14,949 bases of DNA from a virus (IMGVR_UViG_3300022751_000001:1-14949); one strand, 5' to 3'; shown: positions 1,940 through 9,514, numbered from the stretch's first letter. Program-made: numbers and translations. Notes: generated from the letters alone by a model not told the origin.

Positions 1940-2298
1940 ACGACAGCAGTTTATTCAGTAATAACTTTGGTAAGTGGTGCGAAGCACACGGTATTGAGCT
2001 AGGTGACCACAAAGACGGTAAGTTCGACGCTAAGGTAGACTTGAACGAGTTGAAAATCGCGATTATGCGCTTTGCTGATGAGCAAGCTGATAATGCGGTT
2101 GATACCGCGCAGAGCGACTTGCTATTCGACCTAGACGAGATTGAGAACAAACCTTGGCGCGTTTTCAGACAGCTTGGTGCGATTATGCCCGATTATAAGG
2201 ACAGTTACCTACGCTATGAGCATTTTTATATGCACGGTGGTGGTAACGATGTAATGAAGTTGATTGAAGACTTCGAGAAGGATCACCCACTAGTATGA
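1936..2298 (+). CDS. acidic hypothetical protein (120 aa)
   Basis: ATGA overlaps at both ends. Confidence 0.75.
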   Translation: MNDSSLFSNNFGKWCEAHGIELGDHKDGKFDAKVDLNELKIAIMRFADEQADNAVDTAQSDLLFDLDEIENKPWRVFRQLGAIMPDYKDSYLRYEHFYMHGGGNDVMKLIEDFEKDHPLV

Positions 2299-2525
2299 GT
2301 TTAGAATTTGACAAAGATGAAATTAAAATCACCGCTTTCATCAAAAGCACTGACAACGTATTCAACGAACACAATGTATTCGGTGTGGTTGACGCTCGTG
2401 CAAGTATCGCTGAACTAATGCTCGACGCTCGTATCGAGTCTGCGATGAAGTACGGTAAACTTGATTTTGAAGAAGCTGAAAAGCTAGTGCTCGCTGAGCT
2501 AGAAGAGTCTAAACGCGAGTTATGA
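2295..2525 (+). CDS. hypothetical protein (76 aa)
   Basis: ATGA overlaps at both ends. Confidence 0.7.
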   Translation: MSLEFDKDEIKITAFIKSTDNVFNEHNVFGVVDARASIAELMLDARIESAMKYGKLDFEEAEKLVLAELEESKREL

Positions 2526-2965
2526 TCTCGCAAAAGCAACGAGAAAAACTTCGCGAAGACCTTTTGAAGGTTAGGTATATTCACCCTAAGAAATGTCTCG
2601 AGAAGTGCGTCTGCGGTCGCGATGAGTTGCTATGGTCAATTGACGAGTACACCGAACTTGTTACCGCTGAACGCGTACGGTTCGCAGAGATAAAGGCTGA
2701 CAACTACGCGAAGATACTCCAACGTATGGGCGCGAACACGTGCGAAACCTGTAAAGACTTTATGGCAGAGGCAGATGAAGTCTACTGTGACGGGTGCGAT
2801 AATGTCATTCACCAGAAGTGTGCGGGTTACACCACTAAAGGTGGCTACTATGATGACGAGGGCACCGTTCTTTGTGTCGACTGCAAGAAGAAAGAAGACG
2901 CTAGAGAAAAAGAAGAGCCCATCGAAATGGACCCTTGGGGTAGCTACGACGAGTTACCGTTTTAG
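2522..2965 (+). CDS. Cys-rich zinc-finger protein (C4HC3, PHD-like) with acidic DELPF C-terminus
   Basis: CETC-x11-CDGC-x4-H-x2-C-x17-CVDC at 2741-2884; ends ...SYDELPF; the stop overlaps the portal stop. Confidence 0.75.
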   Translation: MISQKQREKLREDLLKVRYIHPKKCLEKCVCGRDELLWSIDEYTELVTAERVRFAEIKADNYAKILQRMGANTCETCKDFMAEADEVYCDGCDNVIHQKCAGYTTKGGYYDDEGTVLCVDCKKKEDAREKEEPIEMDPWGSYDELPF

Positions 2966-4635
2966 CTTTTAGCTACACCTATCTTTTGTTTTGCGTAACG
3001 CTTTGTTACTTCTTTTAGTGCGGCTTCAGTGTCGTCGAACAGCACAGTCAATAGTTTGACGTAACCGTTATCGAACTTACCGAAGATGTCGGTAGTACCA
3101 GACACTTTACCGTCTTTCGCTTCAATACCGTTTAGGGTAATGAGTGTAGTGTCAGCCTTGACCGCTGAGTTAATCATAGCGACAGGGTTGTCTTCTTGAG
3201 CAAACTCGATTTCAAGGTCGGGTAAGAACTGACGGATAGGGACTTTGTTGACTGCGATTTCTACGAGGTCATCATCAGCCAGCTCGTTGAGGTTGTAAGT
3301 TACCTCTTTGCTCCCGTTTTCTTCGATGTCTTCGTCGTCTCGGTTTGGTCCACCTTTGGTGTCGCCATCGTTGCCGTCGTCAGCTTTAGTCTGGTCAGGC
3401 ACACCAAGGTCAGTAACTTCGATTTCACCGCGAGCAAACTTTGAAGCCACGTCTGCAGCATAACCAGCGTCAGTAAGAGCTTTCATTACGTCGAACTCAG
3501 CTTGACGTACTTGAACTGCAGCCTTAGCAGCGTCTTGGTCAGATTCAAGTGGGTTATCTAGAGCCATTTCGTAGTGGGTCTTTTCCCACTCGTCTTTGTA
3601 GTGTGTACGGTAGTCGAGGTTCAATGCGTCGATGATAGTTTCGATCTGAGGCATAATCGCGTTTTCTGTGAAGTCGTCTTTTTGTGTACGAGAAACTTCG
3701 CGACCTGTACCAGATTCTTCCATGCCCATGAGTGTCTTAGACACACCACCGATAGCGAATAGGTTGTCGAGGTGAATCTTGTTGATGTCACCCAGAGCTG
3801 CCTTGTCGAGGTCTTGTTGCATGTCTACCCAGTCAACAGTACCGCTACCGTTACCGAAGATTGGTTCACCCTTGTTGTGGTTCTGAAGACGTGAAACGAA
3901 GTTCGCAAAGTCTTCTTCTTCTAGTTCGATTGAAGTAGAGATGATACCAGGAGTGTTAAGGTTACCCTGAATCGCCTGTCGAGCGTAATCAGATGCTTGC
4001 TTCATCGTGAATTGAGCATCACGAGCCGCGTCTGCCATTGAGAAGTGTCCGCCACTATTGAACGGGTCCATCAATGAAATAGGGATAATCATGTCTTTGT
4101 GAATGTCGCGGGTTTTACCGTTGCGAGATTCGATGTAGCCACCGAGTTCACCAGTTTCACTGTTAACTACCTTACGGATATTGTACGGGTTCAAAAGTGA
4201 GAACGATTGTACTGCCCCTAAGTGTCCGTCAGCGTATACGCGTCGAGCTGCGTATAGGTAGAAGACACCCTCAAGGTCGAGGTATGTTGAGATGTTGTAC
4301 CAGAACACTCGTTCAGAAAAGTTCTTTGATTCGCGGATAAGAGGAAGGTAAGGGTGAACTACCGCAGTCTTGTCGTGGTTCGCAGATTCGAGGACTTTCT
4401 TAGAAGCGTTGGTGTAAATGTTTCGCTTACCGATAACTGCTGTGCGGTTTGCACGTCGGGTAATAACAGCGTATCCGAAGTCGCTGTACATATCCTTATC
4501 TGTAATCGTAGTTGCAGACCAAGAAGGAGACATAGTTCTCCCGCCATTCCGAAGAAAGTCTGTCGATAAATTGTTCTTTGTCTTTGCTACGGCCGTTGCA
4601 TTGGCTCTTGAAAGACTATCAAGATTTTTATTCAC
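2962..4635 (-). CDS. phage portal protein (HK97-family-like), 557 aa
   Basis: Size, position upstream of the prohead protease, and portal-like segments (YLDLEGVFYLY, LLNPYNI, GNLNTPGII, LFAIGGVSKTLMG, F.E..IMPQIETIIDALN). GTG start with AGGT upstream. Confidence 0.9.
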   Translation of the reverse strand: MNKNLDSLSRANATAVAKTKNNLSTDFLRNGGRTMSPSWSATTITDKDMYSDFGYAVITRRANRTAVIGKRNIYTNASKKVLESANHDKTAVVHPYLPLIRESKNFSERVFWYNISTYLDLEGVFYLYAARRVYADGHLGAVQSFSLLNPYNIRKVVNSETGELGGYIESRNGKTRDIHKDMIIPISLMDPFNSGGHFSMADAARDAQFTMKQASDYARQAIQGNLNTPGIISTSIELEEEDFANFVSRLQNHNKGEPIFGNGSGTVDWVDMQQDLDKAALGDINKIHLDNLFAIGGVSKTLMGMEESGTGREVSRTQKDDFTENAIMPQIETIIDALNLDYRTHYKDEWEKTHYEMALDNPLESDQDAAKAAVQVRQAEFDVMKALTDAGYAADVASKFARGEIEVTDLGVPDQTKADDGNDGDTKGGPNRDDEDIEENGSKEVTYNLNELADDDLVEIAVNKVPIRQFLPDLEIEFAQEDNPVAMINSAVKADTTLITLNGIEAKDGKVSGTTDIFGKFDNGYVKLLTVLFDDTEAALKEVTKRYAKQKIGVAKS

Positions 4636-4668
4636 GCGTTGTTTTACCTAATTGTTTATTCTATTTTG

Positions 4669-4678
4669 ATTATACATA
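4669..4678 (-). promoter_or_regulatory. putative -10 element for the portal gene (TATGTATAAT), no -35 consensus
   Basis: 33 nt upstream of the portal GTG; same 10-mer as at 1067-1076; the -35 position reads GCCTGT. Confidence 0.5.
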
Positions 4679-4710
4679 CAAGTGAAATATCACAGGCTCG
4701 AGAGGGGTAA

Positions 4711-4836
4711 GAAAAACACCGCATGGTAGCGCGGTGCTTTCGATAAGGAGGGTGTATAAGTCGGTTCGTATCGCCCATGATGCCTTTGATACAAACCAAT
4801 AGGGGGTATAAAGTGTTATTTATCAGTTAACACAGC
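4711..4836 (-). ncRNA. candidate ~125-nt small RNA (or attenuated leader) with two C-rich unpaired tracts
   Basis: Bounded by a consensus promoter (4842-4870) and a terminator (4712-4740). Stems GTGTTA/TAACAC (4833-4813) and GGTTTGTATC/GATACGAACC (4797-4763); linkers UUUAUACCCCCUAUU and ACUUAUACACCCUCCUUAUC. No well-supported ORF inside. Confidence 0.65.
4712..4740 (-). terminator. intrinsic terminator
   Basis: Minus strand AAAG-CACCGC-gctaccat-GCGGTG-TTTTT: 6-bp GC-rich stem followed by 5 U. Confidence 0.65.
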
Positions 4837-4841
4837 TCACT

Positions 4842-4870
4842 ATTATAGGGGTGGGGTACACCGAAGTCAA
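4842..4870 (-). promoter_or_regulatory. near-consensus sigma70 promoter
   Basis: TTGACT(4870-4865)-17 bp-TATAAT(4847-4842). Confidence 0.8.
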
Positions 4871-4873
4871 CGA

Positions 4874-4902
4874 TTGCGACCTAGACGAGGCATCTGTATA
4901 GT
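4874..4902 (+). promoter_or_regulatory. sigma70-type promoter, leaderless, back-to-back with the minus-strand promoter
   Basis: TTGCGA(4874-4879)-17 bp-TATAGT(4897-4902)-6 nt-ATG(4909). Confidence 0.7.
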
Positions 4903-4908
4903 GAAAGT

Positions 4909-5169
4909 ATGAGCTATACAAAAAATGACGACGACTTCTACCTGACCGTAGGTCAGCTCCGACGCGTCCTAGAAAATCTCCCCGATAATACAAAGGTCTA
5001 CTACCAACGTATCGAAGACGCGTATTTCGAAAAGCACGGGTGGACGCCCGATCTCGTGGTGCCCGATGATTCAAAGCACATCTACCCAGACATACCCGAC
5101 AACGAGTACGTCCGAGCGTTCTGCGCGTTCGACTTTGAAGGTAGACTTTGCTTGACAGCGCACTACTAG
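4909..5169 (+). CDS. small phage hypothetical protein (86 aa)
   Basis: Has its own promoter and a downstream terminator; the LTVGQLRRVLENLPDNTKV N-terminal pattern is common in small phage proteins. Confidence 0.8.
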   Translation: MSYTKNDDDFYLTVGQLRRVLENLPDNTKVYYQRIEDAYFEKHGWTPDLVVPDDSKHIYPDIPDNEYVRAFCAFDFEGRLCLTAHY

Positions 5170-5186
5170 CGTAATAAAATAGTGAT

Positions 5187-5228
5187 GACCACCCTCTTAC
5201 TTTCCAGTTCAGGGGTGGTTTTTGTTTG
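5187..5228 (+). terminator. probable intrinsic terminator (large loop)
   Basis: GACCACCC(5187-5194)/GGGTGGTT(5213-5220) stem followed by TTTGTTTG. Confidence 0.5.
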
Positions 5229-5284: not shown

Positions 5285-5536
5285 ATGAGCAAACCAGTGA
5301 AACAATACAACGCGGTCACGATGAAGAACGGTGTCACACGACAGGTTCCAACACAGTACCACAAACCAAGCGGTAAGAAGAAGACCGTCTCTATGACGTT
5401 ACCTATCGCTCTTACCAGTGTGGTAGAAAATCTCGCGAACATCGACTTTAACGATAATAAGAGTAACGCGTACGAAACGCTATTATTAGAAGCTCTAGAA
5501 AGCAGGGGTCTCAATGTACAGCAAATCAATGAATAG
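5285..5536 (+). CDS. ribbon-helix-helix (CopG/Arc-like) DNA-binding protein (83 aa)
   Basis: KKKTVSMTLPIALTSVVENLA...NKSNAYETLLLEALE fits the RHH strand-helix-helix pattern; re-started at ATG 5285. Confidence 0.65.
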   Translation: MSKPVKQYNAVTMKNGVTRQVPTQYHKPSGKKKTVSMTLPIALTSVVENLANIDFNDNKSNAYETLLLEALESRGLNVQQINE

Positions 5537-5978
5537 AGCAGCTGAGTGTCGCAAACTGATGCCAAAGCTGTTTAAGGTAGAGCACGAGCTTATCGGTAAT
5601 CAAATCAAACGTGATGTCGCTATCTTCAAAGACTTCGCGACAGGTGGGTACACGTACGAGTCACTCGGTCAGAAGTATAACAAGCTACGGGGTTCACGTA
5701 TCTCTCAGATCGTGAAGAAGGTTGAGTTTCAGATTAAGAACCCAAACCAACCAGACCCGCAAATCACCGACCAAACCTTATGGCGACGCAACCGAAACAT
5801 CTATGAGAAGTGGTGTACTGGTGAATACAGTATCTACGACCTATCTAAGAAGTACAACTTAACCGAAGCACGTATCAATCAAATCATCAGAGATGTCACC
5901 CGCAACGAAGAACTCCGACGCGCCAGAGAGGACTTTAATGAACCACTCATCAGCGAGATGGTGAAACGCGATGCGTAG
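5529..5978 (+). CDS. tandem helix-turn-helix protein (Mor/sigma region 4-like), putative transcription regulator
   Basis: Two repeats: RDVAIFKDFATGGYTYESLGQKYNKLRGSRISQIVKK and RNRNIYEKWCTGEYSIYDLSKKYNLTEARINQIIRD. Start at ATG 5529 overlaps the RHH stop. Confidence 0.75.
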   Translation: MNRAAECRKLMPKLFKVEHELIGNQIKRDVAIFKDFATGGYTYESLGQKYNKLRGSRISQIVKKVEFQIKNPNQPDPQITDQTLWRRNRNIYEKWCTGEYSIYDLSKKYNLTEARINQIIRDVTRNEELRRAREDFNEPLISEMVKRDA

Positions 5979-8161: not shown

Positions 8162-8464
8162 CTAAGCAACTGGTACGAAGTAATACACTGAGCCTTTGCG
8201 GTTCGTAAGCTCTAAGATGTCCTTGCTAGTGTGTGCAAGTAGTTCTTTCCCGTAGATAATCTGTAGGGTAGCTGTAACGACCTTGTCGCCTTCGAGGTAA
8301 GTGATAACGTGTTGACGGTTAATCTTCTTGCCTGCTTCGTCACGTAAGCTGGTAGCCTTACCTGTTACTGACTTGACGATGTTCTTGCGAAATGTTTTAG
8401 CCACTTCGAGTTTGTGGGCAGGTACAGTTACCTTCGCCTTCACTGGTGCTTTGGTTGCAGTCAT
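8162..8464 (-). CDS. lysine-rich basic hypothetical protein, copy B (100 aa)
   Basis: SD AAGGAG, own promoter; paralog of 7352-7675, with many third-codon-position differences. Confidence 0.85.
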   Translation of the reverse strand: MTATKAPVKAKVTVPAHKLEVAKTFRKNIVKSVTGKATSLRDEAGKKINRQHVITYLEGDKVVTATLQIIYGKELLAHTSKDILELTNRKGSVYYFVPVA

Positions 8465-9328: not shown

Positions 9329-9514
9329 ATGGAGATACTTGAATACCCCCTAGAGGACTATGCAGTTACTAAAGAAGGCAAGGTGTGGTCGTTTAGGACA
9401 GAGCGTTGGTTATCGGAGTTTATGGTCAATGGGCGTAGGGCGGTTACTATGAGTGTTGCAGGCAAACGCTATACTAGGCTCGTTGATGTGCTTGTACGTT
9501 CTATACACGAATAG
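9329..9514 (+). CDS. NUMOD4-like protein, apparently lacking an HNH nuclease domain (61 aa)
   Basis: YAVTKEGKVWS...NGRRAVTMSVAGKRYTRLVDVLV parallels NUMOD4 (Y.VSN.GRV.S ... GY..V.L ... VHRLVA); the ORF stops where HNH would begin. Confidence 0.55.
   Translation: MEILEYPLEDYAVTKEGKVWSFRTERWLSEFMVNGRRAVTMSVAGKRYTRLVDVLVRSIHE

Follow-up and report, generated by a model that had tools for sequence, protein, structure and literature searches.

What does this phage keep in the 273-nt gap between its portal gene and a divergent plus-strand gene of 86 amino acids, and what could the product do? The stretch of DNA analysed here, which we call the window, makes up the first 14,949 nt of a phage record of 84,056 nt in IMG/VR; this record has direct terminal repeats of 127 nt, a G+C content of 46% and an estimated completeness of 100%. 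The sequencing runs that contain the stretch were DNA runs only, from leaf-litter and wastewater metagenomes. A first-pass annotation had placed in the gap a minus-strand RNA of about 125 nt, with C-rich tracts resembling the anti-Shine-Dalgarno (anti-SD) sequence of 16S rRNA. We found that the gap does hold the gene of a small RNA (sRNA), composed of a near-consensus promoter and then a folded RNA of ~125 nt on the minus strand. To our knowledge, phages of uncultured hosts have yielded few regulatory RNAs, and the phage sRNAs known so far are mostly from temperate phages of model bacteria.

In GenBank phages, neither blastn with the region nor tblastn with the portal protein gave a match, and the portal of the window had no relative in the prokaryote genomes, hence no lead to the host. 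The sRNA gene lies 4.7 kb from the genome end. The Mor-like protein (PF08765) is the only regulator found among the ten largest ORFs in the first 7.3 kb of the window, and Pfam returned nothing for four ORFs near the presumed lysis genes. The ATG of the divergent 86-aa gene stands 6 nt after its TATAGT -10 box, and this gene looks leaderless. A small ORF (MEILEYPLEDY...) at 9330-9514 of the plus strand has its ATG ~11 nt after a CATAAT box, and in several structural genes elsewhere the ATG comes immediately after UAGGUAUA or a TATAAT box.

Promoter and fold of the RNA

The promoter that the first-pass annotation had read on the minus strand is present (4870..4842, Table 1). It scores 11/12 and is among the four best sites of the window in a promoter scan, and the predicted start of the sRNA is near 4836. 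Folding of 4836..4706 with RNAfold gave the succession that had been drawn before: hairpin 1, linker 1, hairpin 2, linker 2 and a U-tailed terminator. The free energy of this fold is -33.7 kcal/mol, compared to -22.4 +/- 3.0 for 200 dinucleotide shuffles, none of which was as good (z -3.73). Hairpin 2 had been described with 10 bp; it is present, but has 12 bp in RNAfold, which adds two basal pairs, U-A and U-G. As had been noted, both linkers begin with UUAUAC. Linker 1 holds a C-rich motif that we call type A (UAUACCCCCUAU, 4810-4799) and has a mean P(unpaired) of 0.83, and linker 2 holds the type B motif with CCUCCUUA at 4751-4744. The terminator loop, with a P(unpaired) of 0.91, contains the third UACC of the RNA.

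Table 1. Coordinates of the sRNA gene and of the neighbouring features in the window.
Feature	Position	Strand	Details	Source
sRNA promoter	4842..4870	-	-35 TTGACT (4870-4865), 17-bp spacer, -10 TATAAT (4847-4842)	
Hairpin 1	4813..4833	-	6-bp stem GUGUUA/UAACAC (4833-4828 / 4818-4813), 9-nt loop	RNAfold
Linker 1	4800..4812	-	predicted unpaired, 13 nt: UUUAUACCCCCUA	
Hairpin 2	4761..4799	-	12-bp stem, 15-nt loop AAAGGCAUCAUGGGC (4787-4773)	RNAfold
Linker 2	4742..4760	-	predicted unpaired, 19 nt: CUUAUACACCCUCCUUAUC	
Intrinsic terminator	4712..4741	-	core stem 4737-4730 / 4723-4716, loop CUACCA (4729-4724), U5 4716-4712	
Further C-rich element	4701..4709	-	UACCCCUCU, just past the U tract, transcribed only on read-through	
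Promoter region of the portal gene	4658..4676	-	TGTATAAT (4676-4669) and TAGAAT (4663-4658)	
Portal protein gene	2962..4635	-	GTG start, downstream of the sRNA	PF04860, E 2e-17
Divergent neighbour	4874..5169	+	promoter TTGCGA-17-TATAGT and 86-aa gene (4909-5169)	
Mor-family activator gene	5514-5978			PF08765

A simple terminator scan did not list the terminator of the sRNA. It is supported by the fold and by conservation with compensatory changes. Rfam cmscan of 4400-5200 at E up to 10 returned only sub-threshold matches to GcvB and mir-509, and that to GcvB, of 17.7 bits compared to a gathering score of 42, lay mostly on the terminator. No Rfam match at the gathering score was found in the window or in four of the homologues described below (L027-L030), and ARAGORN found neither a tRNA nor a tmRNA.

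Homologues in related phages

Eight related phage contigs carry a unit of promoter, hairpins and terminator, and these homologous units sit upstream of portals with 71-96% identity. A search guided by the portal gave five IMG/VR contigs with portals 95-96% identical to that of the window (L002-L006), and a protein database route gave L027-L030, with portals 80, 79, 73 and 73% identical, respectively. Relatives match the portal of the window from residue 1. In L002-L006 and L027-L030, the portal gene is preceded by a long non-coding gap with a promoter, a structured RNA and a U-tailed terminator, and the sRNA has one copy per genome. A covariance model built from the close set of contigs matched L027 (E 6e-11), L028 (E ~0.02-0.08) and L030 (E 0.04-0.18). 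L029 and L030 could not be aligned over the full length, yet their units are of a similar kind. The promoter pattern GTTGACTT-N15-CTATAAT is invariant in the window, L002-L006, L027 and L028, and its spacer is unrelated between lineages.

The covariance model gave nothing on contigs with portals of ~40-60% identity (L036-L061), which have small membrane-protein ORFs at the position of the sRNA. In IMG/VR, the pattern GGCATCNTGGGC-N8-16-CTTATAC had 20 matches, which were real only in the five known contigs and were otherwise chance matches in coding DNA. In the JGI metagenomes, a pattern of the promoter and hairpin 1 had 70 matches, which were real only in four leaf-litter contigs already found; the others were unrelated promoters.

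A second C-rich RNA seems to be encoded on the opposite strand in some relatives. In L029 (2440-2560, -), L027 (2540-2660, -) and L028 (2253-2420, -), the intergenic region of the first unit also has, on the other strand, a predicted second unit that runs from a promoter to a terminator. In L029 the predicted unit would expose C-rich tracts in a hairpin loop (CCUCCAACUACCU) and in the terminator loop (GUACCCUAU); the unit of L028 has a C-rich terminator loop (CUUCCCUCCUUGG) and that of L027 has CAUGCCCACUCCAAG. Each of these second units is known from a single sequence, and the phage of the window is without one. In a more distant relative with a portal 46% identical (L140, NCBI assembly GCA_040384025.1), the portal gene is preceded by small ORFs, and these in turn by ~870 nt of non-coding DNA. 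Two promoter-to-terminator units lie in this DNA at 2150-2620 (+), together with the C-rich tract GCCCCCAGUAUCAAACCCCUCACCC and, ahead of a run of U8, a CUUAUACCCUGA box.

Structure under selection and coding potential

We counted base pairs in a model-fitted alignment of eight sequences; MAFFT by itself misaligned hairpin 2. The sample is small, with about five independent lineages and, besides these, two that are not alignable. Standard pairs occupied 92.3% of the pair cells, compared to 25-48% when the partners were slid by 1-3 columns. The search for covariation upstream of related portals, which had been proposed along with the annotation, revealed double changes at 11 of the 26 pairs, and none of 500 column shuffles reached the observed covariation score. 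The three stems contributed in different ways. Hairpin 2 has compensatory double changes at 8/12 pairs, and its arms are 25-28% identical among lineages. In the terminator, 97% of the cells are paired, with double changes from G-C to A-U at 3/8 pairs. Hairpin 1, whose 5' arm is 93% identical among lineages, varies only by one-sided changes to G-U or U-G pairs. Such wobble pairs form on one strand only, and the constraint is therefore on RNA rather than DNA. Independent minimum free energy folds of the window and L003 have the five-part architecture, and L005 has a close version of it; in L028 the elements come in the same order, with part of linker 2 paired. Judged from these substitutions, the predicted fold is an RNA-level structure under selection.

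The loop of hairpin 2 contains an ATG at 4778, which had been named beforehand as the possible gene that would speak against an RNA. Its frame is open for 41 codons. However, the ATG is not conserved: it is TTG in L003, the lineages differ by frameshifting indels of 1, 4 and 5 nt, and no SD precedes the ATG. The unit is thus non-coding as far as comparison of the frames can tell, since the reading frame is not conserved. It is extremely unlikely that a small protein is made from this frame, or that the RNA is a phi29-like packaging RNA bound to the neighbouring portal. The latter idea draws on the position of the RNA gene, adjoining the portal gene and near the genome end, but the RNA matches neither the pRNA model (RF00044) nor any other in Rfam, and an 84-kb genome with direct terminal repeats is not phi29-like. 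Complementarity between the loops of hairpin 2 and the terminator occurs in the window and L003, but not in L005. Conservation and covariation instead support the earlier proposal of a discrete, structured, non-coding unit with its own promoter and terminator.

Conserved C-rich motifs

The conserved parts of the RNA are the C-rich tracts, which are predicted to be unpaired in nearly all copies. Conserved besides these are the promoter hexamers, the 5' arm of hairpin 1 and the terminator stem. The core shared by the motifs across copies is UACCC. The AUACCC of linker 1 is invariant in 7 aligned homologues, and within the close clade CUUAUAC(A/C)CCCU of linker 2 and GGCAUC(A/U)UGGGC of the hairpin 2 loop are kept. 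The window lineage, L003, L005 and L028 each have one motif of type A (UACCCCCUAU) and one of type B (UACCCUCC); type A comes first in the window and L028, and type B in L003 and L005. L030 has type A and UACCCUUAU. In L029, a hairpin loop has CUCUACCCUAC, and CUUACCCAAAC precedes the terminator; in both L029 and L030 the UACCC is located in loops or linkers. In the window, L003 and L030, the terminator loop has a further UACC.

It had been suggested that folding be used to confirm the exposure of the linkers. The mean P(unpaired) of the motifs was mostly 0.64-0.98, with several at only 0.59-0.67. The exception was linker 2 of L027 (UACCAUUC), which had a value of 0.35 and was predicted to pair with the loop of hairpin 2. 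Two or three copies of the strict UACCC are present in each of L003, L005, L028, L029 and L030 (P 0.0015-0.039 against dinucleotide shuffles), and P is 0.0015 and 0.005 in the two homologues that are not alignable. The window (P 0.31) and L027 (P 0.16) have just one, which is unremarkable. A loose search for the motif in distant relatives gave no enrichment.

Because the two motif types swap positions between lineages, they fit interchangeable seeds in an RNA better than operators fixed to promoters. The opposite view would be that ATACCCCCTAT, an ATA-N5-TAT dyad, and its relatives are operators, for instance for a Mor-like protein, at the back-to-back early promoters and the portal promoter, and that the fold is secondary. 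The dyad flanks of type A speak for such a signal in DNA, as do several TACCCC elements: one within the sRNA promoter spacer (seen just in the window lineage), one ~40 bp before the -10 box of the portal gene, and one in the spacer of another promoter in the distant relative L041. However, the compensatory and G-U changes reflect selection on RNA pairing on one strand, and the promoters stay fixed while the motifs change order. Moreover, 3 of the 7 matches to a wider motif pattern in the whole 84-kb genome fall inside the sRNA element; no other promoter of the phage has it, and a TACCCC box common to the phage's promoters was sought and not found. We regard the operator view as very unlikely.

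Two sets of C-rich elements lie outside the terminated RNA. One is TACCCCACCCC, the TACCCC element of the promoter spacer at 4851-4858 (-). The other is the ACCCC(U) element after the U tract, which is also found in L003, L005, L028 and L030 and is absent from L027 and L029. The UACCCC elements at these two places are not accounted for by a model in which the motifs are seeds.

A further possibility is that the hairpins with their (C/U)UUAUACCC repeats are a decoy, which would titrate a protein that binds C-rich single strands, such as Rho or a KH/S1-type protein, and would pair with no mRNA. In its favour, the motif occurs 2-3 times, ~50 nt apart, each just 3' of a hairpin; the linkers are C-rich and G-poor like a rut site; and the AUA/UAU flanks of type A, although strictly conserved, have no matching target in the phage. 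Against it, a candidate binding protein was not identified, the motif lies in loops in L029 and L030 so that its position relative to the hairpins differs, and known RNAs with such a layout act by base pairing (PMC4132741, PMC2790875). We consider a protein decoy unlikely, and interchangeable seeds for RNA pairing are the reading that we prefer.

Separation from the portal gene

In the window and in 7 of the 8 homologues, the RNA immediately precedes the portal gene, in the same orientation. This arrangement, the Mor-family activator gene nearby and the third UACCCC element just beyond the terminator would suit a leader or insulator acting in cis. A strong early promoter would then point towards the late portal gene and be stopped at the terminator, an antiterminator of the lambda pR'-tR'/6S or put kind would be needed late, and the RNA would be a by-product or a cis signal of antitermination. 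The first-pass annotation had kept an attenuated leader of the lambda type as its alternative.

Several observations weaken it. The segment from TGTATAAT (4676-4669) to the GTG of the portal gene is invariant in six close contigs, and the box itself is also kept in L027-L030. A clade with portals of ~50% identity, which is without the RNA, has a TG-extended -10 before the portal gene. As the conserved promoter lies downstream of the sRNA terminator, the portal gene has a promoter of its own. In L028, a DUF6527 gene (PF20137, E 6e-9) at 2580-2930 (-) is inserted between the sRNA terminator and the portal promoter. This gene is on the opposite strand, converges on the sRNA terminator and was uncalled in the source annotation. 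The sRNA unit is thus a separable module. Furthermore, the upstream neighbour is divergent and no Q-like gene was found on that side; inspection by eye showed no upstream segment that could pair with the terminator's 5' arm, so that an antiterminator alternative is missing; and a plain terminator needs no conserved unpaired motifs between drifting stems. The cis-acting leader is therefore, in our estimation, improbable.

The portal leader deserves a remark of its own. TGTATAAT...TAGAAT...AAUUAGGUAAAACAACGC-GUG (4636-4680, -) is invariant in six contigs whose neighbouring sRNA has diverged strongly, and only a weak AGG or AGGU precedes the GTG start.

Candidate targets and the anti-SD question

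None of the phage targets considered for the sRNA is convincing. A duplex scan over the whole phage genome and a scan of its initiation regions found no site with extended complementarity. The best initiation regions were those at 29087 (AAAGGAGGUGUGUAUC, -23.7 kcal/mol), of the first gene of a plus-strand operon, and at 68488 (AUAGGGGAGGA, -19.7 kcal/mol). Both pair mainly via the SD, and both are conserved in two sister genomes without co-variation with the seeds. Where the motifs have perfect complements, these fall on strands that are not transcribed or within coding sequence on the sense strand. The only other ATACCCCCT of the window is within the sense strand of the small ORF at 9330-9514 (+), and so is not a target site. 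A G-rich leader at ~17.9 kb has a mere 6-bp match to the sRNA, and the portal leader UUAGGUAA, inspected by eye, pairs poorly with it. The AAGGAG leaders at 8464, 10454, 12269 and 12783, which had been named as targets, are present, but they are outside the best ten partners of linker 2 and the best six of linker 1.

The region around the site at 29087, which is outside the window, has a layout worth describing. At 29020-29110 (+) of the genome, two AGGUGUGUA(C/U) boxes, 29 nt apart, stand downstream of a strong promoter (TTGACA-17-TACGAT). The second box forms the AAAGGAGG SD of a 97-aa gene with a GTG start, and this is the best predicted partner of linker 2 in the phage.

The sRNA had originally been read as an anti-SD mimic that represses SD-led mRNAs generally and spares leaderless genes. 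In its strongest form, an abundant RNA would mask SDs of the GGAGG type globally and shift translation to the leaderless or weak-SD messages of the phage. About 1/3 of the phage genes have SDs of the AGGAG type and several look leaderless or have a weak SD, and sparing leaderless genes is therefore a coherent idea. CCUCCUUA would be exposed in linker 2, and the predicted pairing energies of linker 2 with the initiation regions correlate with those of a 16S tail (r 0.65). However, the invariant core is only UACCC. CCUCC is present in the window, L003, L005 and L028 and absent from L027, L029 and L030, so that a global repressor of this kind is unsupported. A duplex of 5-6 bp would presumably compete poorly with ribosomes and need a stoichiometric excess; pairing confined to the 6-nt SD would not, we expect, beat the ribosome's own. 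The phage's own SD-led genes would be hit too. We think that a global decoy has quite a low probability, and targets of a more particular kind appear to us the better assumption.

A bolder version of the same idea sees in the sRNA a device that reprograms translation. Abundant early RNAs with anti-SD-like tracts exposed would mask the strong GGAGG/GGGGG sites of host messages, and perhaps of early phage messages, and thereby free ribosomes for leaderless and weak-SD genes. This is a long shot in our view. If true, the sRNA would be an RNA counterpart of RegB of phage T4, which removes SDs by cleavage.

Proposed mode of action and known systems

We offer the mechanism of the sRNA as a hypothesis, for which the evidence is sequence. 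We infer its transcription, its action in trans, its pairing with ribosome-binding sites and its targets. Host RNA polymerase would start at the near-consensus promoter, which is of the sigma-70 type, and would stop at the intrinsic terminator. With such a promoter, the sRNA is probably expressed early in infection. The three hairpins would serve as a scaffold that keeps UAUACCCCCUAU and UACACCCUCCUUAU single-stranded, with the third UACC in the terminator loop. The C-rich motifs would then be redundant seeds for the G-rich ribosome-binding sites of particular host or phage mRNAs, of the AUAGGGGGUAU-like or GGAGGGU-like kind, and pairing of the seeds would block the initiation of translation in the way of the SprX/LhrC/RsaE class. 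Because the layout is like that of LhrC, the UCCC-motif sRNAs, 6C and SprX, we favour a trans-acting, seed-redundant translational repressor among the explanations considered. By analogy with these RNAs, there is perhaps an even chance that the sRNA is a stand-alone RNA acting in trans with redundant C-rich seeds on G-rich ribosome-binding sites.

The sRNA was defined from metagenomes alone, with covariation support and a clear motif open to mutation. The phage has both SD-led and leaderless genes, and the sRNA gene is located in its early/late control region. If the seeds of the sRNA act on ribosome-binding sites, it would be a simple system in which to study how a phage biases translation during infection. 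The set of homologues can serve as the seed alignment of a new RNA family.

Some resemblance to known phage RNAs lies in gene position. In lambda, the 6S RNA of pR'-tR' (with antitermination by Q), and in HK022 put, a strong promoter makes a short, structured, terminated RNA upstream of late structural genes. The locus described here differs in that the portal gene has a separate promoter, no Q-like gene is adjacent, the RNA can be separated from the portal gene, as in L028, and its unpaired motifs are conserved. The immunity RNAs c4 of P1/P7 and sar of P22 pair through short exposed segments around a ribosome-binding site (PMC12197685). They act on a defined site of their own phage, whereas no such complementary site was found in this phage.

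There is also a likeness to bacterial RNAs that use exposed C-rich tracts as seeds on G-rich ribosome-binding sites, such as RsaE/RoxS and other UCCC-motif sRNAs of Firmicutes (PMC2790875) and 6C of Actinobacteria (PMC6486639). However, those are families of host chromosomes with Rfam models and with UCCC or C6 loops rather than UACCC, and none of them matches here at E up to 10. In Listeria monocytogenes, LhrC1-5 have three CU-rich sites, in a hairpin loop, in the single strand between hairpins and in the terminator loop, all of which bind the SD region of lapB independently of Hfq (PMC4132741). The redundant layout of similar motifs, including a linker and the terminator loop, is common to LhrC and the sRNA, but LhrC is chromosomal, multicopy and stress-induced, whereas the sRNA has a single copy per phage genome, another core and no homology to it.

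SprX (RsaOR) of the converting phages of S. aureus is similar in being a stand-alone sRNA encoded by a phage with an unpaired C-rich element. This element (UCCC) keeps ribosomes from loading on spoVG by pairing with its SD and start region (PMC4005690). SprX differs in that it belongs to temperate phages with a known host and has validated targets, and the two RNAs have no similarity in sequence or in Rfam. Here, the motif is UACCC(C/U)CC, it lies in linkers, and the phage is an uncultured one of 84 kb with direct terminal repeats. The sRNA thus represents a new RNA family, with no counterpart in Rfam or in GenBank phages, but of a known functional kind, that of sRNAs with C-rich seeds, a class defined by function and not by homology.
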